Assembly: GCA_937922155.1 (NCBI GenBank)
Contig: CAKZVL010000049.1
Span: forward strand, 9,004 to 73,003
DNA from: an uncultured Rhodobacteraceae bacterium
Lineage (GTDB): Bacteria; Pseudomonadota; Alphaproteobacteria; Rhodobacterales; Rhodobacteraceae
Direction: 5' to 3'
DNA length: 64,000 nucleotides
Positions 1 through 60,738 of this stretch are shown in pieces. How positions within the stretch are numbered: position 1 is the first letter of the stretch; each line of letters opens with the position of its first letter. The notes under the pieces were generated by a model. It was not told the origin of the DNA. It saw only the letters and a program-made list of their open reading frames with translations, and did not search any database. The position numbers and the translations under genes were made by a program.

Positions 1-1101
1 GAACGTGGCTTTGTCCCCATGCCATGGCTGACGTCTCCAACCGCCTTGCTCCCACTTTGGGCCTTTCACGACGATGGCCGCCCGTTCGCAGGGGATCCCC
101 GTCACGCATTGGCCAACATTGTCGCGCGCTTTGCCGCCCACGGCCTCACCCCCGTCTGCGCGACAGAGATGGAATTTTACCTCGTCGATGACAGCGGCCC
201 TGACATACAGCAACCCAAATCCCCCAGATCCGGAAAACGCCGCGCGGGCGCCAATATCCTCTCCCTCCCCATGCTCGACGGATTTGACGCCTTTTTCAAC
301 GACCTCTACGCCGCCTGCGCAGCAATGGACATCCCGGCAGAGGCAGCCATTTCCGAAGGTGGCGAAGGCCAGTTTGAGGTCAACCTCAACCATGTCCCCG
401 ACGCCCTCAAGGCGGCAGATGACGCTTGGCTGTTCAAAATGCTGGCCCAAGGCCTCGCGCGCAATCACGGCATGGCGGCGACATTCATGGCCAAACCCTA
501 CGCCGACTTTTCCGGCACCGGGCTGCACACACATTTCTCCCTGCTCGATCAGGCGGGGGAAAACGTCTTTGACAATGCCAGCAACCGGGGCAGCGAAATA
601 CTACACCACGCGATTGCAGGCTGCATGGGCGGGCTGGATGATCTGATGTTGATCTTCGCTCCGCACGGCCCCAGCTATGACCGCCTGGTTCCCGGTGCCC
701 ATGCGCCGACCGCCGCCTGCTGGGGCCATGACAATCGCACCACTGGCATCCGTATCCCCGCCGGTGATCCCGCCGCCAAACGCATCGAACATCGCGTTGC
801 AGGCGGCGATGTGAACCCTTATCTGTTCCTCACCGCGGTGCTCGGCAGCGCCTTGATTGGCATCGAACAAAAACTGCCCCCACCCGCCCCGATTGTCGGC
901 AACGCCTACGCTCAAAACCTACCGCAGGTTATCACCAATTGGGCCAGCGCGATTGACGCCTTCGATCAGGGGCCACTGGCACGGCAAATCTTCGCGCCAA
1001 CACTCGTCGACAACTTCCTGCGTACCAAACGACAGGAAATGGAGCGTTTGAAAACCCTGTCAGATCACGAAAAACTGGCACTTTACCTAGACTGCATTTA
1101 G
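1..1101 (+). CDS. Glutamine synthetase-family protein, gamma-glutamylpolyamine synthetase (PuuA/PauA)-like; 5' end truncated by the window edge
   Basis: The frame is open from nt 1. The protein aligns by eye with the paralog at 1836-3188 (GLTP..EMEFYLV, NRTTGIRIP, GGDVNPYL), but about 90 N-terminal residues are missing. Confidence 0.8.
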   Translation, partial: ERGFVPMPWLTSPTALLPLWAFHDDGRPFAGDPRHALANIVARFAAHGLTPVCATEMEFYLVDDSGPDIQQPKSPRSGKRRAGANILSLPMLDGFDAFFNDLYAACAAMDIPAEAAISEGGEGQFEVNLNHVPDALKAADDAWLFKMLAQGLARNHGMAATFMAKPYADFSGTGLHTHFSLLDQAGENVFDNASNRGSEILHHAIAGCMGGLDDLMLIFAPHGPSYDRLVPGAHAPTAACWGHDNRTTGIRIPAGDPAAKRIEHRVAGGDVNPYLFLTAVLGSALIGIEQKLPPPAPIVGNAYAQNLPQVITNWASAIDAFDQGPLARQIFAPTLVDNFLRTKRQEMERLKTLSDHEKLALYLDCI

Positions 1102-1155
1102 ACCACACAAAAAGGATCGCCCCTGCGCATCCAAAACCCCAAGTCACGGTGACCT

Positions 1156-1839
1156 ATGCACATTGGAATTTTACAAACCGGCCACGCTGCGGAGGAAATA
1201 CAATCCACCTCCGGCGATTTTGACGTTCTATTCGCCAAACTCCTGCAAAATGAGGGGCTGAGTTTCACCGCCTATGACGTCGAAAACATGGTTTTTCCAT
1301 CCAAGGTAGGTGAATGCGACGGCTGGCTCGTCACCGGTTCACGCCATGGCGCCTATGAGGATCACCCCTTCATCCCCCCCTTGGAAATCTTCATCCGCGA
1401 CGCCTACAGCGCAGATGTTCCAATGGTCGGCATTTGCTTTGGCCATCAAATCATCGCCCAAGCCCTCGGCGGCGTGGTCGAAAAATTCGAAGGCGGCTGG
1501 GCCGTAGGTCGCCAAAGCTACACCATGGGCGATCAAACCCTCGCCCTGAACGCATGGCATCAGGATCAAGTGGTGAGCGCCCCCAAAGACGCCACCTGCA
1601 TCGCCAGCAACGCATTTTGCGAAAACGCAGCCCTCGTCTACGGTCGCAAAGCCTTCACCGTACAACCGCATCCAGAATTTGACTCCACTGTCGTCCAAGG
1701 ATTGATCGACCATCGCGGCAAGGGCATCGTGCCCGAAGACCAATTGCAAGAGGCCGCTGAAAACCTTGATAAGACCAATGACAACGCAGCCCTCGCCCAA
1801 ATGATCGGGCGGTTCTTCCGCGAACGCGCTCTCCAATGA
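1156..1839 (+). CDS. Class I glutamine amidotransferase (possible gamma-glutamyl amide hydrolase role, PauD/PuuD-like)
   Basis: It has the nucleophile motif GICFGHQ and an HPE triad element (QPHPEFD). Its stop overlaps the next start (ATGA at 1836). Confidence 0.75.
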   Translation: MHIGILQTGHAAEEIQSTSGDFDVLFAKLLQNEGLSFTAYDVENMVFPSKVGECDGWLVTGSRHGAYEDHPFIPPLEIFIRDAYSADVPMVGICFGHQIIAQALGGVVEKFEGGWAVGRQSYTMGDQTLALNAWHQDQVVSAPKDATCIASNAFCENAALVYGRKAFTVQPHPEFDSTVVQGLIDHRGKGIVPEDQLQEAAENLDKTNDNAALAQMIGRFFRERALQ

Positions 1840-3188
1840 ACTGGCGCAAAACGATCCCAGAAGCGGCGAACACCTACCTTGAAAGCACCCGCTTGGATGA
1901 GGTCGAATGCGTTATCGCCGACCTACCCGGCATCGCGCGGGGCAAGGCGGTTCCCGCCTCCAAATGGGAAACGCAAACCCACTTCCACCTGCCCAATTCG
2001 ATCTTCTTTCAAACCATCACAGGCGATTGGGGCGACGATGACGCCGTCGAAGGCTACCTCGAACCCGACATGGTCCTCAAACCAGACCTCGCCACCGCAA
2101 GCGCTGCCCCTTGGGCGGCCGATGGCACGTTACAGGTGATCCATGATGCCTTCGATCAAAAGGGCGCGCCCATCGGCTACGCCCCGCGCAATGTCCTCAA
2201 ACGGGTGGTCGCGGCGTATGTTGCTGCTGGCCTCACCCCTATCGTGGCGCCGGAAATGGAATTTTACCTTGTGGCGCGCAATATCGACCCGGCCAAACCC
2301 ATCGAACCAATGATGGGGCGCACCGGACGACCCGCCGCCGGGCGACAAGCCTATTCGATGTCCGCCGTGGATGACTACGGCCCCGTTATCGACGACATCT
2401 ACGAATTTGCCGAAATCCAAGGCATCGAAATCGACGGCATCACCCAAGAAGGCGGCGCAGGTCAGCTCGAAATCAACCTGCGACACGGCGATCCTGTAAC
2501 GCTGGCCGATCAAGTCTTCTACTTCAAACGCCTGATCCGCGAAGCCGCGCTCAAACACGACTGCTTTGCCACCTTCATGGCCAAACCGATCGAGGGGGAG
2601 CCGGGCAGTGCCATGCACGTGCATCACTCGATCCTCGACAAATCCGGCGACAACATCTTTACCGGGCCACAGGGCGGCGAAACCGACGCCTTCTTTCACT
2701 TCATCGGCGGCTTGCAAGAACACCTCCCCAGCGCAATCGCGGTCCTTGCCCCTTACGTCAACAGCTTCCGCCGCTACGTGCGCGACCACGCCGCCCCGAT
2801 CAATCTGGAATGGGGCCGCGACAATCGCACCACGGGCATTCGCATTCCTCTGTCCGATCCAAAATCCCGCCGCATCGAAAACCGCATCGCCGGCATGGAT
2901 TGCAATCCGTACCTGTGCATCGCCGCATCGCTGGCCAGCGGCCTGCTTGGCCTGCAAAACGAAACCAGACCCGACAAACGCTACCGCGGTGACGCCTACG
3001 ACGCCCAAGACGACATCCCAAAAGGCATGTACGCCGCCCTCGAACTCTTTGACGCCGCCAAGGATTTACATCAAATCATGGGCCCCGACTTCGCGCGGGT
3101 CTACTCGGCTGTAAAGCACGCCGAATACAACGAATTCTTGCAAGTCATCTCGCCTTGGGAACGCGAACACCTCCTCCTAAACGTCTGA
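1836..3188 (+). CDS. Glutamine synthetase-family protein, gamma-glutamylpolyamine synthetase (PuuA/PauA)-like
   Basis: 450 aa with GS catalytic-domain motifs (EMEFYL, QEGGAGQLEIN, NRTTGIRIP, DCNPYL). Confidence 0.85.
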   Translation: MNWRKTIPEAANTYLESTRLDEVECVIADLPGIARGKAVPASKWETQTHFHLPNSIFFQTITGDWGDDDAVEGYLEPDMVLKPDLATASAAPWAADGTLQVIHDAFDQKGAPIGYAPRNVLKRVVAAYVAAGLTPIVAPEMEFYLVARNIDPAKPIEPMMGRTGRPAAGRQAYSMSAVDDYGPVIDDIYEFAEIQGIEIDGITQEGGAGQLEINLRHGDPVTLADQVFYFKRLIREAALKHDCFATFMAKPIEGEPGSAMHVHHSILDKSGDNIFTGPQGGETDAFFHFIGGLQEHLPSAIAVLAPYVNSFRRYVRDHAAPINLEWGRDNRTTGIRIPLSDPKSRRIENRIAGMDCNPYLCIAASLASGLLGLQNETRPDKRYRGDAYDAQDDIPKGMYAALELFDAAKDLHQIMGPDFARVYSAVKHAEYNEFLQVISPWEREHLLLNV

Positions 3189-3209
3189 CACTTATGTCGA
3201 TCTTTTCGC

Positions 3210-3241
3210 ATCATCTTGCCAAAAATACTCCCGCCGGAGGC
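3210..3241 (+). repeat. Conserved post-stop intergenic element, copy A (ATCATCTTGCCAAAAATACTCCCGCCGGAGGC)
   Basis: It lies 22 nt after the stop at 3188. It is near-identical over a 21-22 nt core to the copies at 6075-6105 (minus) and 15561-15592. Confidence 0.7.
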
Positions 3242-3285
3242 AAAATTATTCCAATAATTTTCGCCCCGCTTCAAATGGGCGCGCC

Positions 3286-4590
3286 ATGAACCCACTCTAC
3301 CGCAACGACACCCCCGGAACCTTTCCCGCCAGCTGGTATGCGGCCACCGCCGACATCCCCGATCAACGCCCAGCTCTGCGCGGCGCGCATAGCGCAGATG
3401 TCTGCATCATCGGCGCCGGCTTCACCGGGCTCACCGCCGCCCTCAGGCTCGCTCAGCAGGGACGCCACGTCATCGTTCTCGACGCCCATCGCGCAGGCTT
3501 TGGCGCTTCGGGGCGCAACGGCGGGCAAGTCTCCTCTGGCTTTAACTGGGATCAACACGCCCTCGCCGCCAAACTCGGCGACGGCCCCGCTCGCGCGCTC
3601 TGGGACCTCTGCGAAGACGCCAAAGCCGACCTCGCCGACCTGATCAAATCCCACGCGCCTGAGGCCCGCCAAACCCCCGGCGTCGCCTACGGCATCTACA
3701 CCGACGCAGAACGGCGCAAGGTGCATGATGAGGTTGCGTTCCTGCAAAAAAGCTACGGCTACAACCAAATCACAGCACTGGATCGCGCCGACATCTCCGC
3801 CCTCGTCAAAACCAAAGCCTATCACGGCGGCTCGTTGGACATGGGCGCCAGCCACATCCATCCGCTGCGTTACGTCCTCGGCCTCGCCCGCGCGGCAGAG
3901 GCGGCAGGCGTCACGATCTATGAGGGATCAGAGGTGCACAACATCGCCAATGGCACGCGAGTGAAGGTGCAAACCCCCAAAGGTCACGTCATGGCCGACC
4001 ACGTCATTCTGGCTGGCAACGGCTACCTGCCCAATATGGTCGGGCAAGTCGCAGCCAAAGTCATGCCCATCAACAGCTTCATCGGCGCAACCGCCCCCTT
4101 GGGCGACAAAGCCGCCGACATTCTAACCCGCGACATCGCCGTGGCCGACAGCAAATTCGTGGTGAACTATTATCGCCTGTCCGAGGATAAACGCCTGCTC
4201 TTTGGCGGGCGGGAAAGCTATTCTGTAGGCTTCCCCAACGACATCAAAACCGCCCTCGTCAAACGCATGTGCACCTTGTTCCCGCAACTGACAGGCACCC
4301 CCATCGACTACATCTGGGGCGGCACCTTGGGCATCACGATGACCCGGCTCCCAGCGGTGCAAAAGATCGGGCCAAACATCTGGTCAGCGGCCGGGTTCTC
4401 AGGCCACGGCGTGGCGCTTTCGGGTATGTCCGGGCGCATCTTGGCTGAGGCGATCATGGGCGACACCAACCGCTTTGACACGATGCAATCCCTGCCCGTG
4501 CCAAACTTCCCCGGCGGCGCTGCCTTTCGCGCACCGCTCTTGTCGCTGGCCATGACATGGTACGCCATGCGCGACCGGTTGGGTCTTTGA
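3286..4590 (+). CDS. FAD-dependent oxidoreductase (DAO family; gamma-glutamylputrescine oxidase PuuB/PauB-like)
   Basis: N-terminal dinucleotide fold DVCIIGAGFTGLTAAL, 434 aa, and its position in the polyamine cluster. Confidence 0.8.
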   Translation: MNPLYRNDTPGTFPASWYAATADIPDQRPALRGAHSADVCIIGAGFTGLTAALRLAQQGRHVIVLDAHRAGFGASGRNGGQVSSGFNWDQHALAAKLGDGPARALWDLCEDAKADLADLIKSHAPEARQTPGVAYGIYTDAERRKVHDEVAFLQKSYGYNQITALDRADISALVKTKAYHGGSLDMGASHIHPLRYVLGLARAAEAAGVTIYEGSEVHNIANGTRVKVQTPKGHVMADHVILAGNGYLPNMVGQVAAKVMPINSFIGATAPLGDKAADILTRDIAVADSKFVVNYYRLSEDKRLLFGGRESYSVGFPNDIKTALVKRMCTLFPQLTGTPIDYIWGGTLGITMTRLPAVQKIGPNIWSAAGFSGHGVALSGMSGRILAEAIMGDTNRFDTMQSLPVPNFPGGAAFRAPLLSLAMTWYAMRDRLGL

Positions 4591-6110: not shown

Positions 6111-6656
6111 CTAGCCCAGCTTGTTGAGCTTATCCTGCATCGCCTTTAGCTGGGCTTTCATATCTTCAAGGTCGCCCTCGGCGTCGTCGGTCGGTTCTTT
6201 GGCCGGGGCGCCGGCGCCCATCATACCCCCTGTCATCGCTTTCATAAACGCATCTTGCTGGGCGCGCATCGCCTCAAACCCCGGCATCGCCGCCAGCGGG
6301 TTTGCCTTGGTCATGTTTTCCATCGCCTGCGATTGGCCTTCGCGCAATGTTTCAAAACTGGTTTGCAAAAACGACGGCACCACAGAGGCGACTTGGCTGG
6401 TATAGCTGCGCACAAGGTCGGTCAGAATATCAACACCCAGCACGCTTTCGCCTTTGCTTTCGTGTTCTGCGATAATCTGCAACAGGTACTGCCGGGTCAG
6501 ATCATCACCGGACTTCAAATCAACGATCTGCACCTCACGGCCTTCGCGAATGAAAACGGCGATATCCTCAAGCGTCACGTAATCGCTTGTCTCAGTGTTA
6601 TACAATCGCCGACTTGCATAGCGTTTGATCAGCAGCGGTTGGTCTTTGGTGGCCAT
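6111..6656 (-). CDS. phaR: Polyhydroxyalkanoate synthesis repressor PhaR
   Basis: LIKRYASRRLYNTETSDYVTLEDIA is the canonical PhaR N-terminus. I prefer the internal ATG at 6656 (MATKDQP) over the ORF-track start at 6761. Confidence 0.85.
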   Translation of the reverse strand: MATKDQPLLIKRYASRRLYNTETSDYVTLEDIAVFIREGREVQIVDLKSGDDLTRQYLLQIIAEHESKGESVLGVDILTDLVRSYTSQVASVVPSFLQTSFETLREGQSQAMENMTKANPLAAMPGFEAMRAQQDAFMKAMTGGMMGAGAPAKEPTDDAEGDLEDMKAQLKAMQDKLNKLG

Positions 6657-6807
6657 GCCTTGCCCCTCCCCGGGGAATGTTGCGGTTGCAAAAAGCCTAT
6701 GCCGCATGTGCGAGGAAAGAAAGGGGTATGACGCAGTGCCGCAAGAATGTGAATTTAGCACATTTTCCGGCGTTCATTATGGCGAATTAATCAATTCAAA
6801 ACAAAAA

Positions 6808-6841
6808 AGAGACGGAACATCGGGAGGAATGTTCCGTCTCT
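6808..6841 (-). terminator. Rho-independent terminator downstream of phaP
   Basis: A 13-bp stem (AGAGACGGAACAT / ATGTTCCGTCTCT) with a 7-nt loop. It is followed on the minus strand by a T6 run (6803-6808 region). Confidence 0.75.
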
Positions 6842-6915
6842 TGCACGCACGAACCCTAAATTTGGGGTGAAGGTGTTCGCATATGTGACTTACCAATTAC
6901 GCGTTACTGTACCGT

Positions 6916-7365
6916 TTACTTTGCGGCGGCTGTTGCTTTCTTTGCAGCAGCAGTCACTTCAGTTGTCGCCTTTTTGGCAGCAGCTGTCATTTCTTCTGAC
7001 ATGTCTTTGCCAGCGGCCAACATCAGTTCCATTGTCTGTGTCTGAACCTTTTTCGCGATTTCAGCGAAAGCTGCCATTTTTTCTGTCGCTGTTTCTGCAG
7101 ATGCAGATGCGAATTCAGTCATGGACTTTGCGTAATCCGCTGGTTCTGCTTTTGCAGCTGTCAAGGATTGCATCTTGGTCAATGCGTCCTGTGCCCATGC
7201 TGCGGACAGTTCAGTGGATTTTGTTGCCGCGTCCAGGTTTACGGATGACAGCTTTTCAGCCAGGGATGACTGCGTCTTGAACGCGTCTTCCATTGCTTTT
7301 GTGTCAACAGGGAATGAACCCATCATGTCTTTGAAGACAGCTGTGAAATCTTGAGTGTTAGCCAT
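6916..7365 (-). CDS. phaP: Phasin family protein (PHA granule-associated)
   Basis: 149 aa, Ala/Lys/Glu-rich and helical, with the FTAVFKDMMGSFPVD phasin-type N-terminus. It lies between phaR and phaC. Confidence 0.8.
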   Translation of the reverse strand: MANTQDFTAVFKDMMGSFPVDTKAMEDAFKTQSSLAEKLSSVNLDAATKSTELSAAWAQDALTKMQSLTAAKAEPADYAKSMTEFASASAETATEKMAAFAEIAKKVQTQTMELMLAAGKDMSEEMTAAAKKATTEVTAAAKKATAAAK

Positions 7366-7437
7366 TTGATCTATCTTTCCGGTTTACGGAGGCCGCAGCC
7401 TCAGAAGGTTGGTTTTAACTTGAGAGATAGATACATG

Positions 7438-7497
7438 CTGCATCGCGGCATTTCAAGTCTTTTTCTGCATCGCAGCAAAAATAATGCTGCAATTGCA
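7438..7497 (-). promoter_or_regulatory. PhaR-operator-like boxes upstream of phaP
   Basis: An exact CTGC-N3-GCAG (CTGCATCGCAG) lies at 7465-7475. It is flanked by the near matches CTGCATCGCGG (7438-7448) and CTGCAATTGCA (7487-7497). Confidence 0.55.
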
Positions 7498-7552
7498 TAA
7501 TGTCCTGAAAAATCATAATAATTTTAGGCACTTTCCCGGTTATAACTGGAAA

Positions 7553-9358
7553 TCACTCTGTTTTCGGTAAAACATAGGTCCCCGGCGCAGGCCCCAAAAC
7601 CGGATGTGATGGCCCACCTTCCGCACGTGCAGCGATGCGTTTGCCCGATTTTGCCGACAGCCATTTTTCCCATTCCGGCCACCAGCTGCCCTCGTTTTGT
7701 TGGGCATCTTGCTGCCACTCCAGCGGCGCCAGCGTCAGATCTTCATTGCTACGGTATCCGTATTTCACACGGGTCGGCGGGTTGACGATCCCCGCGATAT
7801 GCCCAGACCCCGACAGGATAAACGTCTTATCTTTCGATCCCATCTTTTGAATACCGCGATAGCTGCCTTTCCAGTGGGCAATGTGGTCCGTCTCGCAGGC
7901 AATCGCATAAAGCGGAACGCTTACATCGCTCAAATGCACCAGCGTGTCGCACACCTCAAACCCAGCGCCGTTGGCGAAAGTATCCTGCTGGCAGAGCCCG
8001 CGCAGATATTGCACCGCCATCTTAGCCGGCAGGTTCGTCCCATCCCCGTTCCAATACAGCAGATCAAAGGCCGGCGGCGCCTGCCCCATCATATAGCTTT
8101 TGATCGCAGGCCCATAGATCAGATCATTTGATCGCAGAAAACTAAACGTGCGGGACATATAATACTTGTCCAACACACCTGCCGTCTCCACCTCCGCCTC
8201 GATCCCATCGACGAAATCATCCTCTAGGAACACGCCAACCTCACCGCGGTCAGAAAAATCCGTCATCGTGGTAAAGAACGTCGCGCTGTTCACAGATGTA
8301 TCACCACGCTGCTTCATCAGGGCGAGGGTCAGCGACAGTGTCGTCCCCGCAATGCAATACCCAACCGCGTTCACCTGTTTGACGTCACAAATCTGTTTGA
8401 CCTGTTCAATCGCGGCCAGAAACCCAGACTCCACGTAATCTGTCATCGTCGTGTCGCGATAGCTGCTGTCAGGGTTCACCCACGAGACAACAAACAGCGT
8501 ATAGCCCTGATCCACGATCCATTTGATCAGCGAATTCTTTTCCTTCAGATCAAGAATATAAAACTTGTTGATCCACGGCGGGAACATAATCAGCGGCGTT
8601 TCATACACCATGTCCGTCGTCGGCGTATATTGGATCAATTCGAACAAGTGATTGCGATAAACCACGCTCCCCTTGGTGGTGGCGAGGTTTTCACCAACCT
8701 GAAACGCATCCGCATCGGCCAGCGTGACAACAAGATCGCCGTTGTTCGCCTCCAAATCGCGCACAAGGTTTTCCAGCCCCTTCACAAGGCTTTCACCATC
8801 AGTTTCCGCCGCCAGCGACAAGGCCTCTGGATTTGTCGCCAGAAAATTCGTCGGGCTCAGCATGTCGATGATCTGGCTCGAAAAATACTCCAAACGCGAC
8901 CGCTCTTGCGGCTCCAACCCATCTAGATCGGCCACAGCGGTGCGCATTGCTTCTGCGTTCATCAGATATTGCTGCTTGATAAAGTTGAAATAGGGGTTCG
9001 TATCCCACAACTCATGAGCGAAACGACGATCCTTTGGGCCCTTATCCGCGGGGGATTCAATGCGCCCTTGGACCAGAATATGTTGCGACTCCACGAAATG
9101 TTTGACCGATTTGGACCAAAACCCCAACTGATGCTCCAACAGCTTGGCCGGATTATTCACCATCTCGGCCCAATACGCACTCGCAGCCTTGGCATAAAGG
9201 TCAGGCGAAGGACCGCTCAGGGGCTGCGGCACTTGCCGCCCTTGCTGCATCGCAGAAAGAAGGCGTTGCGTCAGCTCTTCTATTTTACTGAGGTTTTTCT
9301 CAAGTTCCGCAAGGTTTTCACTAGAGATTGCGCCATTTGTGACATCTTTGGTTGTCAT
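7553..9358 (-). CDS. phaC: Class I poly(R)-hydroxyalkanoic acid synthase
   Basis: 601 aa with a lipase-box-like GYCIAG carrying the catalytic Cys, and a typical PhaC N-terminal region. Confidence 0.9.
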   Translation of the reverse strand: MTTKDVTNGAISSENLAELEKNLSKIEELTQRLLSAMQQGRQVPQPLSGPSPDLYAKAASAYWAEMVNNPAKLLEHQLGFWSKSVKHFVESQHILVQGRIESPADKGPKDRRFAHELWDTNPYFNFIKQQYLMNAEAMRTAVADLDGLEPQERSRLEYFSSQIIDMLSPTNFLATNPEALSLAAETDGESLVKGLENLVRDLEANNGDLVVTLADADAFQVGENLATTKGSVVYRNHLFELIQYTPTTDMVYETPLIMFPPWINKFYILDLKEKNSLIKWIVDQGYTLFVVSWVNPDSSYRDTTMTDYVESGFLAAIEQVKQICDVKQVNAVGYCIAGTTLSLTLALMKQRGDTSVNSATFFTTMTDFSDRGEVGVFLEDDFVDGIEAEVETAGVLDKYYMSRTFSFLRSNDLIYGPAIKSYMMGQAPPAFDLLYWNGDGTNLPAKMAVQYLRGLCQQDTFANGAGFEVCDTLVHLSDVSVPLYAIACETDHIAHWKGSYRGIQKMGSKDKTFILSGSGHIAGIVNPPTRVKYGYRSNEDLTLAPLEWQQDAQQNEGSWWPEWEKWLSAKSGKRIAARAEGGPSHPVLGPAPGTYVLPKTE

Positions 9359-9426
9359 ATTAAAATCCTACGCCTACTTTGCAGTTGCAGCATCGGCTTG
9401 GCCCATGCCCCCTCAGGAGTGTTCTA

Positions 9427-10710
9427 ATGAAGTATATGGTAACTTATGACCTGATGGAAACCACGCGAAACACCAATCAGTGGTTGGGTGCGACCGCGCG
9501 GGCCTTCGCAAGCTATCCTGCAATGGCCGCAATCCCTAATCCTGCGATGGATTGGCTCAAAGCATGGGGTGAGGTCACAGAACGCACCTTCGCGCGAATG
9601 GTCGTCAAACCCGATTGGGGTATCCCCTCATTTACCTGCGAGGATGGCAAAGACCACATTGTCGAAATTGAAACGCTGGTGGAACGCCCCTTTGGCGACC
9701 TGATCCATTTCAACGTCCCTGGCCGCAAGGAACGCAAGCGCCGCGTCTTGCTCGTCGCCCCAATGTCCGGCCATTACGCCACATTGCTGCGCAAAACCGT
9801 GATCAGCCTGCTCCCCGATTGCGAAGTCTTCATCACAGATTGGCACAACGCCCGCGACATTCCCGTCAGCAAGGGCAAGTTCGACGTCGAAGATTACACG
9901 CTCTACCTCGTTGATTTCATGAAGGAACTTGGCAGCGACATCCACATCGTGGCCGTCTGCCAACCCGTCCCACTGGCACTGGCCGCAACCGCCTATCTGG
10001 CTGAAGAAGACCCCAGCGCACAGCCGCGATCCCTCACCCTGATTGGCGGCCCAGTTGATCCCGATGCCAACCCGACAGAAGTCACCGACTTTGGCCACTC
10101 CGTCACGATGGGCCAGCTCGAAGAAACGATGATCCAGCGCGTTGGTTTTAAATCCGCAGGCGTCGGGCGCATGGTCTACCCCGGCCTGCTCCAGCTTGCC
10201 TCATTCATCTCTATGAACGGCGAGATGCATTACAACGCCTTCCAAGATCAAATCGTGCGCGCCGCCAAAGGCGAATCCTCCGATCATGACCGCCACAACG
10301 TATTTTATGACGAATACCTCGCCGTGATGGACATGACGGCTGAATTCTACCTCTCCACGGTCGAACGCATCTTCAAAAACCGCGATATCGCGCGCAATGA
10401 ATTTGTCGTCGCAGGCCGCAACGTCGACATCTCCAAAATCACAACTGTGGCCGTAAAAATCGTCGAAGGCGAAAACGACGACATCTCCGCCCCCGGTCAA
10501 TGTCTCGCCGCCTTGGATTTGCTCACCGGCCTGCCCGACAGCAAAAAGGCAGCGCACCTCGAACCCGGCGCTGGCCACTACGGCATTTTCGCTGGGAAAA
10601 GCTGGCGCAACAACATCCGCCCTCTGGTGCTTAACTTCATCGACGCAAATTCCGCCGCCCCTAGGGCTGCAAAATCCGGTAAGTCCGGCAAAGTCGTCGC
10701 AATGAAATAA
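9427..10710 (+). CDS. phaZ: Intracellular polyhydroxyalkanoate depolymerase
   Basis: About 427 aa, divergent from phaC, with length and sequence character typical of intracellular PhaZ. The start is taken at MKYMVTYD. Confidence 0.75.
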   Translation: MKYMVTYDLMETTRNTNQWLGATARAFASYPAMAAIPNPAMDWLKAWGEVTERTFARMVVKPDWGIPSFTCEDGKDHIVEIETLVERPFGDLIHFNVPGRKERKRRVLLVAPMSGHYATLLRKTVISLLPDCEVFITDWHNARDIPVSKGKFDVEDYTLYLVDFMKELGSDIHIVAVCQPVPLALAATAYLAEEDPSAQPRSLTLIGGPVDPDANPTEVTDFGHSVTMGQLEETMIQRVGFKSAGVGRMVYPGLLQLASFISMNGEMHYNAFQDQIVRAAKGESSDHDRHNVFYDEYLAVMDMTAEFYLSTVERIFKNRDIARNEFVVAGRNVDISKITTVAVKIVEGENDDISAPGQCLAALDLLTGLPDSKKAAHLEPGAGHYGIFAGKSWRNNIRPLVLNFIDANSAAPRAAKSGKSGKVVAMK

Positions 10711-17260: not shown

Positions 17261-18562
17261 ATGATCCCACGTTATTCCCGCCCTGAAATGACTGCCATTT
17301 GGGAGCCGGCCACAAAATTCAAAATCTGGTACGAGATTGAGGCACACGCCTGCGACGCCATGGCCGATCTGGGCGTCATCCCTCGCGAAAATGCCCAAGC
17401 CGTGTGGAAAGCCAAAGACGTCGAATTCGACGTGGCCCGCATTGATGAGATTGAGGCGGTGACAAAACACGACGTCATTGCCTTTCTAACCCACTTGGCC
17501 GAAATTATCGGCAATGATGAGGCCCGTTTCGTCCACCAAGGCATGACATCCTCTGACGTGCTCGACACCACCTTCAACGTCCAACTGACCCGTGCCGCCG
17601 ACATCCTTCTGGCGGATATGGATCGCGTCTTAGCGGCCCTCAAAACCCGCGCGATGGAACATAAAGACACAGTGCGCATCGGCCGCTCCCACGGCATCCA
17701 CGCCGAACCCACAACAATGGGCCTGACCTTCGCGCGGTTCTATGCGGAAATGGATCGCGGCCGTCAGCGCCTTGTGAACGCCCGCGCTGAAATCGCCACT
17801 GGTGCGATCTCCGGCGCGGTTGGCACCTTCGCCAATATCGACCCCGCAGTCGAAGAACACGTTTGCGCCAAAATGGGCCTGACGCCCGAACCGATCAGCA
17901 CGCAAGTGATACCGCGCGACCGCCACGCGATGTTCTTTGCGACCCTCGGCGTCATCGCCTCCTCAATGGAAAACATCGTCACCGAAGTCCGCCATATGCA
18001 GCGCACCGAAGTGTTGGAGGCCGAAGAATTCTTTTCCAAAGGTCAAAAGGGGTCTTCCGCAATGCCCCACAAACGCAACCCGATCCTGACCGAAAACCTG
18101 ACCGGCCTCGCGCGCCTTGTGCGGATGTCCGTCACCCCGGCCCTTGAAAACGTAACCCTCTGGCACGAACGCGATATCTCTCACTCCTCAGTGGAACGCA
18201 CCATCGGGCCAGACACAACCGTGACGCTTAACTTTGCCCTCAACCGCCTTGCCGGAATGCTGGAAAAGCTGGTCGTCTATCCCGACAACATGATGGCAAA
18301 CATGAACAAATTCCGCGGCCTCGTGATGTCCCAACGCGTTCTTCTGGCCCTGACCCAAGCCGGCGTCAGCCGCGAGGACAGCTATAAACTGGTACAACGC
18401 AACGCGATGAAAGTTTGGGAAAAGGGCGCGGATTTTCAAACCGAACTGCTGGCAGATGACGACGTCCGCGCGGCGCTAAGTGCGGATGAAATCAAAGAAA
18501 AATTCGATCTCGGCTACCACACCAAACACGTGGATACGATTTTCAAACGCGTGTTTGGCTAG
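17261..18562 (+). CDS. purB: Adenylosuccinate lyase
   Basis: 433 aa with the fumarate-lyase signature GSSAMPHKRNP. Confidence 0.92.
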   Translation: MIPRYSRPEMTAIWEPATKFKIWYEIEAHACDAMADLGVIPRENAQAVWKAKDVEFDVARIDEIEAVTKHDVIAFLTHLAEIIGNDEARFVHQGMTSSDVLDTTFNVQLTRAADILLADMDRVLAALKTRAMEHKDTVRIGRSHGIHAEPTTMGLTFARFYAEMDRGRQRLVNARAEIATGAISGAVGTFANIDPAVEEHVCAKMGLTPEPISTQVIPRDRHAMFFATLGVIASSMENIVTEVRHMQRTEVLEAEEFFSKGQKGSSAMPHKRNPILTENLTGLARLVRMSVTPALENVTLWHERDISHSSVERTIGPDTTVTLNFALNRLAGMLEKLVVYPDNMMANMNKFRGLVMSQRVLLALTQAGVSREDSYKLVQRNAMKVWEKGADFQTELLADDDVRAALSADEIKEKFDLGYHTKHVDTIFKRVFG

Positions 18563-18648
18563 CAAAATCGACTGCGCCAAGCGACCATAGGTGACATTTG
18601 GCGCAGTTCTGCTAATCTCGCCAGCATAGATAATTGTTGGAGGCGAAG

Positions 18649-18816
18649 ATGACTTTGAAGACAATACTCACCGCAGCCATTCTGCTGCTCACCCCCGGAT
18701 TGGCCGTTGCACAATGCATGGGCGGCTATCACAGCACGCAAACCGCGATGAGCTGTGCAGAGGGCACAATGATGGACGAAGAAACCGGGCGCTGCATCCC
18801 GCTGTCGATCAGCTAG
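18649..18816 (+). CDS. Small secreted Cys-containing peptide (55-aa precursor)
   Basis: A strong SD (GGAGG) lies 6 nt upstream of the ATG at 18649. The signal peptide ends AVA-Q, and the ~32-aa mature part has 3 Cys. Confidence 0.5.
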   Translation: MTLKTILTAAILLLTPGLAVAQCMGGYHSTQTAMSCAEGTMMDEETGRCIPLSIS

Positions 18817-18862
18817 CCCGCCAACACCAATGCGCGCGTGCCTGCGCGGGCGCATTTGATGG

Positions 18863-19471
18863 TTAAATCAATCCGAATTGCGACGCGATTGCAGCGGCTT
18901 GCGTGCTGGTGTTCGCTTCCAGCTTTAACTTCGCATTCTTCAGGCGTTGCTTGACCGCCCCTTCTGAGATGTCAATTTCATGCGCAATCTGTTTCAGCCG
19001 CATACCATCCTTGACCATCCTCAACGCAGACAATTCCGCGTTTGTCAGGTTCGTGGGCGGTGCCGTTTCCTGATGACGTCGCTGAACGAACGCATATAGA
19101 AACTTGGTCTCCAGATCCGTGAATTCCCGGTCAGATCGGGTGAAAATCCCATATGATCGCTGCCCCTGCTGATTCCCGTCAAAATGGGAAACCGCAATGC
19201 CATAACGCAACCCAAACACTTGCGCCTGCTTTAGAACGCCCTTTGGATCATCAAGGGCGAGCTCGCTCCACCGGGTCGTCCCTGTGTGGCTATAAACCCA
19301 TCGAATGACCGGATCGAAAATCATATACCGCTGCTTGGTATAATGACTGACCCACGCGTCTGGAAGGTTGTTAATTTCCTCAACCGGAAAGGCAAAACCA
19401 ACCCGCAAAGCGATATAAAAACCGGCCTGAGCAAATTCAGATATCTCGTCTTCACCGATGTCGGCTAGCAT
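18863..19471 (-). CDS. LuxR-family transcriptional regulator with an autoinducer-binding domain (solo in this window)
   Basis: C-terminal LuxR HTH (LSALRMVKDGMRLKQIAHEIDISEGAVKQRLKNA). The N-terminal W-x3-Y-x8-DP-x13-W spacing is identical to the TraR W57/Y61/D70/P71/W85 pattern. Confidence 0.8.
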   Translation of the reverse strand: MLADIGEDEISEFAQAGFYIALRVGFAFPVEEINNLPDAWVSHYTKQRYMIFDPVIRWVYSHTGTTRWSELALDDPKGVLKQAQVFGLRYGIAVSHFDGNQQGQRSYGIFTRSDREFTDLETKFLYAFVQRRHQETAPPTNLTNAELSALRMVKDGMRLKQIAHEIDISEGAVKQRLKNAKLKLEANTSTQAAAIASQFGLI

Positions 19472-19600
19472 CGTCCACCTTTTCGCGACCTAACTTACTT
19501 ACTAATCGTGGGTTGATATTCCCCAGACTCTAATCGTAGACCATTTTTTGAGACTTGTAATCCACTGAATCTCCACTCTAGCTACAGAACGCAAACAATT

Positions 19601-20092
19601 ATGTCGACGCATCAAGATACCATAATTAACTGCCTGATTAATCTCAAAAATATCGCCCCTGCCGGATTCGTCGTTGGACTGCACATTCAGTTCACAACGT
19701 CGCGTTTCTTGTTCCAGACCTATCCGCGCAGGTGGGTCAAACACTATTCCGAAAACGGCTTGATCGTCTCAGATCCCACGGTTGTCTGGGCGGCCCAAAA
19801 CGAGGGGATCAAATATTGGCACGCGCTGGCAGATCAAGACACCGAAGGTGTGCTCAAGGCCTCAGCGGCACATGGTCTGACCTATGGCGTGACCTGCGCC
19901 CACGCCGATGACACCAGCCGGAGCATGGCAGGCTTTGCCCATGATCAATCAGATTTTGACGCCAAAACCGCGCAATCTCTGCTGGATGCCGTGGCGCTGC
20001 TGCACGACAATACCAAAGATATGCAGAAACTCCCAACCGACCTGATCAGCCAACTGCGCGACGCCGGGATTGATATTCCCGCCGGATCATAA
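19601..20092 (+). CDS. Autoinducer-binding-domain-only protein (LuxR N-terminal domain paralog without an HTH)
   Basis: 163 aa with the same W-x3-Y-x8-DP-x13-W pattern (WVKHYSENGLIVSDPTVVWAAQNEGIKYW). It has no C-terminal HTH and ends 34 nt before fliG. Confidence 0.7.
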   Translation: MSTHQDTIINCLINLKNIAPAGFVVGLHIQFTTSRFLFQTYPRRWVKHYSENGLIVSDPTVVWAAQNEGIKYWHALADQDTEGVLKASAAHGLTYGVTCAHADDTSRSMAGFAHDQSDFDAKTAQSLLDAVALLHDNTKDMQKLPTDLISQLRDAGIDIPAGS

Positions 20093-20126
20093 CCAATCCT
20101 TGAGACATGCCCGCTAGATAGCTCGC

Positions 20127-21194
20127 ATGATCCAAACCAATGATTTCAATGCCACCGTGCCCGCGCAGGGCCCCTGCACGCTCTCCCGACGGCGCAAAGC
20201 CGCCTTGGTTGTCCAAATGATGATCGGCGATGGTGGCAAACTGTCCCTAACGGATTTGCCTGAACACTTGCAGGAACTTCTCGCGCTGGAAATGACCGCG
20301 ATCCGCCTTGTCGATAAGGACACAGTGAACGCCGTCGCCCAAGAATTCTCTAGCCTGCTAGAGGCGATTGGCCTGTCCAGCTCGGGCCGCCCGGATCGCA
20401 CGATTGAAACGATTTCCGAACACGTGTCGCCAAACTTGGTCAACAGGTTGCGCACCCGCTTCGGCCTTGCCGAAGGCGCTGACCCTTGGGCGCGCATCCA
20501 AACCATGGAAGAAACGGAACTCACGTCGATCCTCACCCGCGAAAGCGTTCAGATCGGCGCGGTCGTCCTGTCCAAACTCCCCGTGGAAAAGGCCGCAGCA
20601 TTGCTCGGCGTTCTGCCTGGCGAACGCGCCCGTCGCATCACCATCGCCATGTCAGATAACAAAGACATCGCCCCTACAACCGTCGACAAAATCGGCAAGG
20701 CGCTCTTGGCGGGCAACGGCCCTGACAAAGCGATCGCATTTGAAAAAACGCCCGTCGATCGCCTCGGCGCGATTCTCAACAACAGTACGGCCATGACCCG
20801 CGACGCCCTGCTCACAGAAATCGAAACAGAGGATGAAAAATTCGCCAACGATGTGCGCAAGGCGATCTTTACCTTCGCCGACATCCCCCACCGCGTCACG
20901 CCCACTGACGTCCCCAACATCTTGCGCGCCATCACACCAGAACTGCTGACCGTCGCCATGGCCGCCGCACTGGCCGAAGACACCCCCAACACCGAAGCGG
21001 CAAATTTTATCCTCGACAACATCTCGCAACGCATGGCCCAGGCCATGCGCGAGGAAGCGCAGGAACAAGGGACGATCAAACCCAAACAGGCCGAAGAAGC
21101 GATGAACGGCGTCGCCGCCATCGTCAAAGACCAAGCAGACAACGGCGCCATCACCTTTGTCGTGGACGAAGACGAGGATGACGACGCAGGATAA
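20127..21194 (+). CDS. fliG: Flagellar motor switch protein FliG
   Basis: 355 aa with a FliG-type N-terminal, middle and C-terminal layout (KAALVVQMM, EPWARIQ.., IFTFADI). It carries an acidic tail, DEDEDDDAG. Confidence 0.8.
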   Translation: MIQTNDFNATVPAQGPCTLSRRRKAALVVQMMIGDGGKLSLTDLPEHLQELLALEMTAIRLVDKDTVNAVAQEFSSLLEAIGLSSSGRPDRTIETISEHVSPNLVNRLRTRFGLAEGADPWARIQTMEETELTSILTRESVQIGAVVLSKLPVEKAAALLGVLPGERARRITIAMSDNKDIAPTTVDKIGKALLAGNGPDKAIAFEKTPVDRLGAILNNSTAMTRDALLTEIETEDEKFANDVRKAIFTFADIPHRVTPTDVPNILRAITPELLTVAMAAALAEDTPNTEAANFILDNISQRMAQAMREEAQEQGTIKPKQAEEAMNGVAAIVKDQADNGAITFVVDEDEDDDAG

Positions 21195-21406
21195 ACTCCA
21201 CCACGCTCTTATCCAGACTGGAAAAAGCCGCAGGCGCCGATCTGACAGCCAACCCGTCCCGGCGGAGAGGCTGTCAGACCAGCTTAGCGCTGTCCTCGTA
21301 GATTTTGGCTCACCCCCAGAAACCTTAGATCCAAAATAACATAGCAACCACGCAATAAAACCAACGACGCTTTTCATGTCGGTCCCCGCCCCTTAATAAG
21401 AAAAGC

Positions 21407-22315
21407 ATGAACACGCGGGCAAAAACAAAAACGCGGGCAAAACGACGGGGCAGCCGCACAGATTGGTTGGCGGACAAGGCCTTGCGCGGGCTCATTTCGT
21501 CAGTGATGAAACTGCCCTATGAAAAACGTGTCCCCATGATGGGCCGCACGCTGCGCCGCGCGATTGGCCCGCTTGTCGGCTATCGCAAACGCGCCATCGC
21601 CAACCTCACCCTCATCTATCCCGACATGACGGACGTGAACCGCCGACAAATCGCAGAAGACGTCTGCGATAACTTTGGCCGCACGCTGATCGAAAACTAC
21701 TCCTACAAAGAATTTGGCGAACGCCTGAAATCCGTGGTCCCAACCGGCGATGGGCTGACAGCCGTGGCCGAGGCCCATGCCAGTGGCCGCCCCGTCATTT
21801 TCGTCACCGGTCACTTCAGCAACCATGAGGCACCACGCCACGTCCTCACCAACGCAGGCTATGAAATCGGCGGTCTGTTCCGCAAGATGACCAACCCCTA
21901 TTTCAACGACCACTACGCCAAAACGATGACCTCATGGGGCGGGCCGGTTTTCGAACAAGGGCGCAGCGGCACAATCGGTTTTGCCCGACACCTCAAGGGC
22001 GGCGGCTTTGGCACGCTTTTGTTTGACGTGAATGCCACTGACGGAATTCCAATCCCGTTCATGGGGCGCCCCGCAATGACAACAACCTCAGCCGCGGAGT
22101 TGGCTTTGCGATTTGACGCCTTGGTCGTTCCCTATTTCAGCGTGAGAGACACCGACGGCCTGTCCTTTGACGTCACCGTCGAAGCACCGATCCCCCACGG
22201 ATCAATCGAAAACATGACACTGGCAATGACCCAACGCCTGGAATCCTACGTGCGCACCACGCCAGAACAATGGTTTTGGATCCATCGCCGCTGGAAAAGC
22301 CAGCCAAAAGTTTAG
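21407..22315 (+). CDS. Lipid A biosynthesis lauroyl/lysophospholipid acyltransferase (LpxL/HtrB family)
   Basis: 302 aa with an HX4E acyltransferase motif (GHFSNHE) and the WFWIHRRWK C-terminus typical of the family. Confidence 0.75.
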   Translation: MNTRAKTKTRAKRRGSRTDWLADKALRGLISSVMKLPYEKRVPMMGRTLRRAIGPLVGYRKRAIANLTLIYPDMTDVNRRQIAEDVCDNFGRTLIENYSYKEFGERLKSVVPTGDGLTAVAEAHASGRPVIFVTGHFSNHEAPRHVLTNAGYEIGGLFRKMTNPYFNDHYAKTMTSWGGPVFEQGRSGTIGFARHLKGGGFGTLLFDVNATDGIPIPFMGRPAMTTTSAAELALRFDALVVPYFSVRDTDGLSFDVTVEAPIPHGSIENMTLAMTQRLESYVRTTPEQWFWIHRRWKSQPKV

Positions 22316-46338: not shown

Positions 46339-46404
46339 GAAATATCCTTTGGGTTCAGCGCACCTACATAGTGCGCTTCCACCCAATTCGCCAGAGCGTG
46401 CGTG

Positions 46405-47886
46405 CTATTCGTCGATCTGAGGCAGCACAAAAATCTGCCCCGGATAGATCAGATCAGGATCTCGGATTTGATCACTGTTGGCCTCATAGACCGCCACGAA
46501 CATCACCCCTTGGCCATATTCTTCGCGCGCGATGGCCCAAAGCGTTGCACCGGGTTGCACCGTCCGCACCGCAACCTCAAAATCGTCTTGCGTAGTTTGA
46601 TCGGCCAGCGCGGCGGCGACGGTTTCGGCTTCTTCTCTTTTGAACGGTGTTTCGATGCGCGATACGACCGTTCCCTCGGCGTCCAATTCGTCAATGCGCA
46701 GCGTGTAAATGCCGGTATCAATATCCGGCAAATCGGTGCGCCAATCCCGATCAGCTGTGATGCGAGACGACGTGACAGGTTTGTTGTCGATATAAACCTG
46801 AACAAAACCATCCGTGGAAGCACGCCCCGCCAAAAGAACCTCACCCGCGAGGTCATAGGTGATCGTATCAAGCGCAACCTGCGCAACCTGCGGCCCCGCA
46901 CCAGACACGACTCGCACGCCATCTGCGTCGGCTACGAGGATTGTTGGTGTTTCTTCTTCGTCGCTCTCTTCAACATCGGCTGCCGGGTCAAGCGTGTCGC
47001 CGAAAATATCGGCTATGGCCTCGGTCACTTCGACGGATTCTTCGGTCTTGATGGCTTCTGCCAAATCTGGTGGATCAACAGGTTCGACGACCCTTGGTGT
47101 CGGCGCGGGTTCGGATACCTCTCCGGTGGTTGGCGATGGCTCTGGCTGCGGATTGGGGTCAATCGGATCGATCGGGGGATTGGCTTCCACGACCGCTGGT
47201 TCAGACAGGGCGATCACTTCTTCCTCATCCGCTGGGGTGGGTGGCGCAATCGCCCCGGCGATCACGGGTGCGTCTTCACTCTGCACTTCCGGGGCGGGGT
47301 CCTCTTCGGCAACCTCTGTCGCGCCAAAGGGTTCTATGAAATAGGTTTGCGTCATTCGCACCGCGTCGCCGTCAGGATCCGCGATCACGGTCAAGCTGCG
47401 CGATCGATCGGACGCAGCAAGGTCCAAGAAGGCGACAAAACTGCCAGTGCCGTCCGTGGCAACGCGTTCCACGACCCGCCCTGCGACAACAATATCAACC
47501 GCAGTTCCCGGGGCCGCACGCCCCGCAATTACGGCAAGGCCATCCGCATCAACGCGCAGACTATCAAGCGTCGGCATGATTTGGGGGTCTGGTATCGGCT
47601 CTGGCTCCGGGACGGGTTCAGGTTCAGGTTCAGGTTCAGGTTCAGGTTCAGGTTCAGGTTCAGAAAGCGCTACTATAACCTCTTCAGGTGCGCCAATCGG
47701 TTCTGCGCTTTCCTGCTCTGGCGCGGCCTCCACTATCTCTTTTGTCGTGACGTCTTCATCCAGGAAAACCGCCGCCAACGCGTCAACGTCTTGATCGGGC
47801 TGGAGCACAACAAAGGCACCAACGGCCGCCAAACCTGCCCCAACGGCAAGCGCACCAAGCCCGTATCGCGTTCCAAAATTATTCAT
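46405..47886 (-). CDS. LysM peptidoglycan-binding domain protein with a membrane anchor and acidic Pro-rich linkers
   Basis: C-terminal LysM (VQPGATLWAIAREEYGQG..YPGQIFVLP) and an N-terminal TM helix (LGALAVGAGLAAVGAFVVL). It contains an (EP)8 tract. Confidence 0.75.
   Translation of the reverse strand: MNNFGTRYGLGALAVGAGLAAVGAFVVLQPDQDVDALAAVFLDEDVTTKEIVEAAPEQESAEPIGAPEEVIVALSEPEPEPEPEPEPEPEPVPEPEPIPDPQIMPTLDSLRVDADGLAVIAGRAAPGTAVDIVVAGRVVERVATDGTGSFVAFLDLAASDRSRSLTVIADPDGDAVRMTQTYFIEPFGATEVAEEDPAPEVQSEDAPVIAGAIAPPTPADEEEVIALSEPAVVEANPPIDPIDPNPQPEPSPTTGEVSEPAPTPRVVEPVDPPDLAEAIKTEESVEVTEAIADIFGDTLDPAADVEESDEEETPTILVADADGVRVVSGAGPQVAQVALDTITYDLAGEVLLAGRASTDGFVQVYIDNKPVTSSRITADRDWRTDLPDIDTGIYTLRIDELDAEGTVVSRIETPFKREEAETVAAALADQTTQDDFEVAVRTVQPGATLWAIAREEYGQGVMFVAVYEANSDQIRDPDLIYPGQIFVLPQIDE
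47615..47662 (-). repeat. Perfect hexanucleotide tandem repeat (GGTTCA)8 encoding (EP)8 in the LysM protein
   Basis: I counted eight consecutive GGTTCA units directly. They are in frame. Confidence 0.9.
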
Positions 47887-48002
47887 GGCTTCGTTACCAC
47901 CGCCCAAAATCACACTGCGCCGCGGCTTGTCCCCTGCCCAACGCTTGCGCGACCATATCAACAGCGCTACCCACGGTAAAGCAAGCTATGAGGGCTAAAG
48001 GC

Positions 48003-60605: not shown

Positions 60606-60738
60606 AATTTTGCCCTCCTTTTGCGTTAACTTCGAACTAACACGAACAAGGTAAACTGCAAATCAGCGACCCTTGCGGATGGTGATGTAAACGTTTGGGC
60701 TGCAATGGCTGCCCGTGTTGGGTGAAGAAGGTAGTTTT

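Follow-up and report, generated by a model that had tools for sequence, protein, structure and literature searches.

The 64,000-bp stretch of DNA analyzed here (contig CAKZVL010000049.1 of an uncultured Rhodobacteraceae bacterium, assembly GCA_937922155.1; hereafter the window) contains two divergently oriented genes for LuxR-type acyl-homoserine lactone (AHL) receptor proteins, named A202 and B163 after their lengths in amino acids (aa), of which B163 has no DNA-binding domain. The two proteins are likely orthologues of CerM and CerN, respectively, the two-protein quorum-sensing switch of Rhodobacterales, and, judged by this homology, would operate through an anti-repressor mechanism. The system itself is already known, its mechanism since 2024 and its gene layout since 2013–2015, and the window pair is a further member of it. 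The original prediction, made from the DNA letters, treated the pair as unusual and has to be corrected in this respect, because the system was published in 2024 (PMC11655674) and the luxI-less layout was catalogued in 2015 (PMC4338825). The pair is thus no new kind of system, and its value is in the context it gives to CerM/CerN, for which one species has been studied: the breadth of the family, the contrast between the paralogues at the position of TraR Y53, the coupling to fliG, and the occurrence of a CerM/CerN pair without an adjacent luxI.

Relationship of the divergent pair to CerM and CerN

The start of each of the two open reading frames (ORFs) is the first start codon past an in-frame stop, so that neither of them can be extended. 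A202 matched the Pfam families Autoind_bind (50.4 bits, E 2.3e-13) and GerE, a helix-turn-helix (HTH) domain (35.3 bits), while B163 matched Autoind_bind (51.5 bits, E 1e-13) and no other Pfam domain. With a cut-off (gathering score) of 23 bits for Autoind_bind, both N-terminal domains fall inside the autoinducer-binding family, a point on which the original prediction might have failed. Its description of a minus-strand LuxR of 202 aa and a divergent, HTH-less paralogue of 163 aa on the plus strand agrees with the ORF coordinates and the Pfam domains. The same holds for its view of the shorter one as an intact gene, which is not extendable and is about 160 aa long across relatives. The two proteins are 29% identical to each other. 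In an NCBIfam scan of the pair, likeness to SdiA and TraR was weak and below the threshold, and likeness to VisR covered the HTH alone. The VisN/VisR flagellar master regulators of Rhizobiaceae were accordingly rejected as a candidate identity, with 19 bits for TransRegVisR against a cut-off of 300, a match restricted to the HTH region, and no HTH in B163. The AlphaFold2 model of B163, computed from an alignment of 87 family members, had a mean predicted local distance difference test score (pLDDT) of 96.3, and its top fold matches in the PDB were TraR, YenR, RhlR, CviR, SdiA, LasR and QscR, with a probability of 1.00 each. The C-terminal tail of B163 can be aligned to the linker and the first helix of the GerE domain of the long (A-type) proteins, which reveals the origin of the short (B-type) form.

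The N-termini of CerN (MVNVPS...TLRH) and CerM (MKEAFL...) were obtained by translating the cloning primers in the supplement of PMC11655674, and the C. sphaeroides locus (L038) was found by scanning metagenome contigs with a primer-derived 20-mer. In this locus cerI, cerR and cerM lie on one strand and cerN is divergent, at a distance of 119 bp, with a CerN of 160 aa and a CerM of 195 aa; the orientation of cerN and cerM agrees with the cloning scheme in the supplement of the same paper. In BLASTP, A202 was 40% identical to CerM over 177 aa (E 4e-48, 144 bits) and scored 99 bits with CerN, while B163 was 35% identical to CerN (E 7e-33, 103 bits) and scored 62 bits with CerM. Since the cross-score of A202 with CerN was fairly strong, the assignment was tested further by hidden Markov models (HMMs) and a tree. 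On family HMMs made from 30 long and 34 short proteins of other species, with the window and Cer proteins left out, CerN scored 156 bits with the B family against 111 with the A family, and the N-terminal domain of CerM scored 146 bits with the A family against 102 with the B family. In an unrooted neighbor-joining tree, the split between A-type proteins with CerM and B-type proteins with CerN was present in 195 of 200 bootstraps, and CerM and CerN were sisters in none of the 200. The duplication therefore took place before these genera diverged, and before Cereibacter separated from the Roseobacter group. This unrooted split test was used because monophyly of the B clade was unstable (25/100) in a tree rooted with CerR, probably as a result of the distant outgroup attaching within the fast-evolving B clade. 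Moreover, the putative recognition helices, read by eye from the alignment, are nearly identical, ISEGAVKQRLKNA in A202 and ISESAVKARLKGA in CerM.

The arrangement of the two pairs is also alike. Both are divergent, with a long LuxR of 195 aa in C. sphaeroides and 202 aa here, an HTH-less protein of 160 and 163 aa, and a spacer of 119 and 129 bp, respectively; within each species the paralogues share about 30% identity, and both pairs are tied to motility, via ctrA in C. sphaeroides and via the adjacent fliG here. The differences are that cerR, ORF2 and cerI follow downstream of cerM in C. sphaeroides, whereas the window has neither a synthase nor a second LuxR, that fliG does not follow cerN, and that CerN keeps the R-x-DREF-x3-E motif from which B163 has diverged.

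A scan of one genome per species yielded 36 related loci, all from Rhodobacterales (Yoonia, Loktanella, Tropicimonas, Aliiroseovarius, Amaricoccus, Marivivens, Actibacterium, Rubellimicrobium, Halocynthiibacter, Aliiruegeria and others). Both genes were present in the same divergent arrangement in all 36; in locus L037 the pair is interrupted by the contig end. Short proteins of 155–175 aa were called in 34 of the 36 loci, and the stop-free frame was never long enough for an HTH. A recent pseudogene remnant was rejected on these grounds, and the suspicion that orthologues in relatives might carry a C-terminal HTH was not borne out. The profile search returned 566 family members, and among the best 150 of these, 87 of the 88 short (150–185 aa) cluster representatives had no HTH, and 29 representatives altogether had one. 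A word-index protein search with B163 alone found two proteins; a profile of 87 members found 76, none of them from Cereibacter. The best B-type match of B163 in the species collection was 44% identical. Judged from these sequences, the HTH-less form has long existed as a conserved gene and did not arise by recent truncation. Within Rhodobacterales the pair is ancient and occurs widely; it is mostly coupled to a luxI of its own and often lies directly upstream of fliG. In one locus, from an Amaricoccus metagenome-assembled genome (L032, 3622–4205), the A-type gene runs over several frames beside an intact short gene; this reflects either an error of the assembly or a pseudogene with frameshifts.

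Ligand pocket and proposed mechanism

Pocket residues were equated by combining an alignment to SdiA with the family alignment. TraR residues W57, Y61, D70, P71, W85 and G113 correspond to W45, Y49, D58, P59, W73 and G96 in B163 and to W40, Y44, D53, P54, W68 and G91 in A202. The W-Y-D-P-W spacing of TraR (4, 9, 1 and 14) is matched exactly by both proteins, and the conserved Gly which follows lies five residues nearer than that of TraR. The alignment confirmed the motif strings and the TraR pocket spacing that had been quoted for the pair in the original prediction. The conserved Trp of A202 and B163 is closer to the N-terminus by 12–17 residues compared to TraR and by 22–27 compared to SdiA, and the receptor domains are therefore N-terminally shorter; the earlier remark on short ligand domains was right, with 12–17 residues fewer than in TraR. 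The equivalents of W57, Y61, D70, P71, W85 and G113 are invariant in all 36 B-type proteins, and A202 has no substitution at these six canonical positions. The W57F exchange occurs in one of 32 A-type proteins, namely CerM of C. sphaeroides. At the position of TraR Y53 (LasR Y56), Tyr is present in 36 of 36 B-type proteins and Leu or Phe in 32 of 32 A-type proteins. With Y41 as the equivalent of Y53, B163 keeps all seven AHL-contact and pocket residues. The consistent contrast between the paralogues is thus at the TraR-Y53 position and not in the W57F exchange singled out in PMC11655674. The Leu or Phe of the A-type proteins fits the proposal of the authors of that paper that CerN binds AHL better than CerM.

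In C. sphaeroides, CerN is an HTH-less LuxR homologue and CerM a full-length LuxR (Hernandez-Valle et al., 2024, MicrobiologyOpen; PMC11655674). Together they control ctrA and thereby motility by the Fla2 flagella: loss of cerN or cerI abolishes swimming, and the additional loss of cerM restores it (PMC11655674). CerM binds DNA without AHL, and its regulon includes indirect repression of ctrA and thus of flagellar motility; the binding of CerN to CerM requires AHL, and CerN-AHL displaces CerM (PMC11655674). This mechanism was established by genetics, AHL-dependent pull-down and electrophoretic mobility shift assays (PMC11655674). By analogy with these experiments, ligand-free A202 would sit on DNA through its GerE domain and control a small regulon. 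B163, with the full set of AHL contacts including the Y53 equivalent that A-type proteins lack, would be the high-affinity AHL sensor. AHL-loaded B163 would then form a heterodimer with A202 through the receptor domains and take A202 off the DNA. Because B163 has no DNA-binding domain, the heterodimer would be inactive, and B163 would act as an anti-repressor turning the CtrA and motility genes on. In most relatives the signal would come from the luxI next to the A gene. Here, AHL might be made elsewhere in the genome or by neighboring bacteria, or there might be no signal at all.

Further known systems close to this one, compared by description only, are GtaR/GtaI of Rhodobacter capsulatus and LuxR1/LuxI1 of Dinoroseobacter shibae, which belong to a related LuxR subfamily placed in the same orthogroup in PMC11655674. 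GtaR likewise binds DNA in its ligand-free state and is released by AHL, feeding into CtrA, gene transfer agent (GTA) production and motility. In contrast to the window pair, these systems have a single full-length receptor without an HTH-less partner and the "C topology" of synteny.

Missing luxI and alternative readings

In 29 of the 36 related loci, the A gene is immediately followed by luxI on its own strand, and the full order in relatives with both flanks is purB, (small ORF), luxI, long gene, then the divergent short gene and fliG. When the window was searched by tblastn, with CerI and six LuxI proteins of related loci as queries, the best E value was 0.35, and Pfam scans of about 50 of the 60 window ORFs of at least 90 aa found neither Autoind_synth nor a PlsC-type acyltransferase of the HdtS kind; for the few remaining ORFs of this size and for all shorter ones, tblastn was the only screen for LuxI. 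Both kinds of search agree with the original prediction that there is no luxI in the window. Positions 18796–18863 correspond to an 835-bp stretch in L002 which contains luxI, and tblastn detected no luxI remnant at the downstream junction of A202. Since the closest relatives with the small ORF (L002, L005 and L016) and most sampled genera have luxI, its absence here is most simply explained by loss, and luxI was probably lost in the window lineage. A canonical LuxR-LuxI circuit was rejected as a candidate on the same grounds, with 46 bp from the A202 stop to the next ORF and no luxI trace between them. Without luxI, the pair must answer an AHL made elsewhere in the genome, a foreign AHL, or none.

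Several observations weigh against reading the pair as a working CerM/CerN switch. The cognate AHL synthase is absent from the locus and from the window. A202 retains W57, which is Phe in CerM, and may therefore bind AHL better than CerM. Orthology of A202 with CerM, rather than with the C. sphaeroides paralogue RSWS8N_15394, is suggested by the shared divergent synteny and by an A/B tree in which neither this paralogue nor GtaR of C. sphaeroides was included. A scan for the CerM-site consensus TNT(N5)AAGACA(N2)T gave no match in the A202/B163 spacer, and in the 64 kb as a whole two exact matches (0.28 expected) and eight with one mismatch (7.0 expected), which was called chance level for this degenerate motif, whose known targets, regulators of ctrA, may lie elsewhere, and the matches were taken as evidence in neither direction; both exact matches are inside ORFs, the phasin gene and 55317–56561. 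The experimental evidence for CerM/CerN comes from one species, C. sphaeroides, and the pair here is known from its sequence. Finally, B163 has diverged unusually. When the identity of the short proteins was regressed on that of the long proteins over all species pairs, and again with FliG as the yardstick, the mean residual of B163 was −10.8 points against A202 and −10.1 against FliG, and that of the next-lowest taxon −3.9 and −3.4, respectively. B163 was thus the strongest outlier of 31 taxa, while A202 was normal at +2.5. Four deviating residues of B163, H114, Q116, S117 and T123, belong to the R-x-D-R-E-F-x-x-x-E motif, with which the long C-terminal helix of the receptor domain begins, and the divergence of B163 may reflect relaxed or altered function or selection after the loss of luxI.

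The retention of W57 in A202 and its loss in CerM would favor a different reading, in which A202 is a classical AHL-activated LuxR, the cognate receptor for the luxI of relatives, and B163 damps it through inactive heterodimers, as a dominant negative of the TrlR/TraS kind. In 29 of 36 relatives the A gene does precede luxI directly and on the same strand, which is the classical luxR-luxI arrangement, and TrlR/TraS are a precedent, taken up in the discussion of PMC11655674. However, the orthologue CerM needs no AHL to bind DNA, from which CerN-AHL displaces it, and none of the 32 A-type proteins has the Tyr of TraR Y53, which argues for weakened AHL binding. In addition, A202 and B163 share only 29% identity after an ancient split, whereas TrlR of Agrobacterium tumefaciens, which poisons an AHL-activated activator, arose recently as a frameshifted copy of TraR, with which it shares 88% identity. 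The short gene here is ancient and intact, is kept at about 160 aa across many genera, and has a partner which, by homology, would be active without ligand. A truncated LuxR of the TrlR/TraS type was consequently rejected, given the 29% identity and the length of about 160 aa kept in 36 species and about 88 diverse clusters, and the dominant-negative reading as a whole appears rather unlikely. The idea in the original prediction that an HTH-less partner inactivates a full-length LuxR stands in so far as CerN does this to CerM (PMC11655674); the comparison with TrlR does not, since CerM binds DNA without AHL, unlike the AHL-activated TraR on which TrlR acts.

According to another alternative, the pair is a decaying or rewired remnant whose AHL sensing went with luxI, so that B163 either is on its way to losing its function by drift or modulates A202 or the expression of fliG, constitutively or with a new ligand. 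The disappearance of luxI without trace, the deficit of about 10 points of B163 against both yardsticks (3 to 4 points in the next taxon), and the residues S117 and T123, found at those positions in none of 86 other family members, all favor it. On the other side, both ORFs are intact and of a length typical for the family, the seven AHL-contact and pocket residues of B163 are kept, and its deviations in six of 30 strongly conserved columns are within the family range (median 4, maximum 9). Furthermore, a second strain (L001) has sequences of A202, B163 and the spacer identical to those of the window, L010 and L020, which have no adjacent luxI, show no acceleration, and LuxR solos which keep the pocket commonly sense foreign AHLs (PMC4338825). 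Altogether, decay or rewiring seems improbable. There is also a slim chance that the CerN-type protein was repurposed after the loss of luxI and senses foreign AHLs or a non-AHL ligand, or binds A202 constitutively. If this were true, expression of a flagellar-motor gene would be coupled to the signals of other species instead of the cell's own density, making the pair a two-protein "eavesdropping" solo module.

Orthology with CerM/CerN is the preferred reading. The gene order of the window recurs in two catalogues of LuxR proteins. The "group 4" LuxR solos of Subramoni et al. (2015), without luxI, have the order fliG, (hypothetical protein, autoinducer-binding-domain protein), luxR solo and adenylosuccinate lyase in Loktanella and Rubellimicrobium, and proteins with the autoinducer-binding domain only often adjoin full-length LuxRs (PMC4338825). 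In the "D topology" of Cude and Buchan (2013), described for six roseobacters, among them Loktanella, Octadecabacter, Oceanicola granulosus and Roseobacter sp. CCS2, a single luxI is accompanied by two luxR genes, with fliG and adenylosuccinate lyase as flanks (PMC3824088). In gene order and unchanged pocket residues the window matches group 4, of which it is a further example. However, both papers are catalogues, without functional analysis of the HTH-less gene or a link to CerN, and the window organism is a further, more diverged member (best B-type match 44%). Lineages without luxI are natural test cases for an HTH-less sensor of foreign signals controlling the swim-or-stick switch of marine roseobacters.

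Gene neighborhood and other features of the window

The positions of the pair, its surroundings and other features are listed in Table 1.

Table 1. Positions of the divergent pair, its neighbors and other features in the window
Feature	Position	Strand	Remarks
phaR	6111–6761	−	polyhydroxyalkanoate cluster (6111–10710)
phasin-like ORF	6916–7365	−	identified by eye only
polyhydroxyalkanoate-synthase-like ORF	7553–9358	−	putative
depolymerase	9379–10710	+	polyhydroxyalkanoate cluster
purB (adenylosuccinate lyase)	17261–18562	+	Pfam Lyase_1 187 bits, ADSL_C 92 bits; conserved flank
small ORF	18634–18816	+	60 aa; no Pfam match; signal-peptide look judged by eye; conserved neighbor
luxI-less junction	18817–18862		46 bp from small ORF to A202 stop; luxI of about 650 bp here in most relatives
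A202	18863–19471	−	202 aa; short full-length LuxR; Autoind_bind and GerE HTH; likely CerM orthologue
divergent spacer A202/B163	19472–19600		129 bp; presumed to carry both promoters
B163	19601–20092	+	163 aa; Autoind_bind alone, no HTH; likely CerN orthologue
fliG (flagellar motor switch)	20127–21194	+	Pfam FliG_N, FliG_M, FliG_C; 34 bp past B163
lipid A acyltransferase	21407–22315	+	next after fliG
Hint_2 (PF13403) domain protein	60715–61731		338 aa

The flanks of the pair are conserved. In 16 complete related loci purB is syntenic and 81–91% identical, and homologues of the 60-aa ORF were found by tblastn in L002, L005, L016, L006 and L035 (42–63%). The position of this small ORF varies: in L002, L005 and L016 it separates purB from luxI, and in L006 and L035 it is located between the short gene and fliG. 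On the other side, fliG is present in 19 related loci, and in 15 of these its distance from the B gene is 26–47 bp. No terminator-like site was present in the junction of B163 and fliG, and the two genes are probably co-transcribed, judged from this arrangement. A terminator-like hairpin is present on the minus strand at 18848–18833 in the downstream junction of A202.

The divergent spacer is 114–161 bp long in 27 of 29 related loci. In the window, its A202-proximal half contains a direct repeat, CTAATCGT, at 19502–19509 and 19530–19537, with a period of 28 bp, which was not significant against shuffled sequences (p about 0.065). Searches of the spacers for direct and inverted repeats gave nothing significant in any single locus. 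The Yoonia-like spacers (L003, L009, L011 and L019) have TCTTGC-N14-TCTTGC at the relative position equivalent to that of CTAATCGT, also not significant per locus. An element GCAACC-N2-AAAG(C/A)(G/A)AGT occurs 23–31 nt upstream of the start of the short gene in about 15 of 30 aligned loci (including L002, L003, L005, L009, L011, L013, L014, L016–L019 and L023), and was found neither in the window spacer nor in that of C. sphaeroides. It could be a leader, a ribosome-binding element, or the site of a regulator.

The second strain is represented by a Logan contig whose positions 1–3381 correspond to window positions 17917–21297. The two sequences differ at 22 positions, one in purB and 21 in fliG (20492–21059), and the cluster in fliG may be a recombination patch.

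The remainder of the 64 kb carries ordinary housekeeping genes (among them glutamine synthetases, the polyhydroxyalkanoate cluster, aconitase, ccm, secDF, serS, der, bamB, an RND pump, sodB and sarcosine oxidase). No other flagellar genes and no ctrA, cckA or chpT were found in the window, and Rfam and tRNA scans of it gave no match. Two ORFs overlap almost completely in antisense, 46402–47979 on the plus strand (525 aa, no Pfam match) and 46405–47961 on the minus strand (518 aa). Within the phasin-like gene, a perfect palindrome, TGTCTTTGAAGACA, at 7326–7339 fits the CerM-site consensus and was taken as a chance occurrence.

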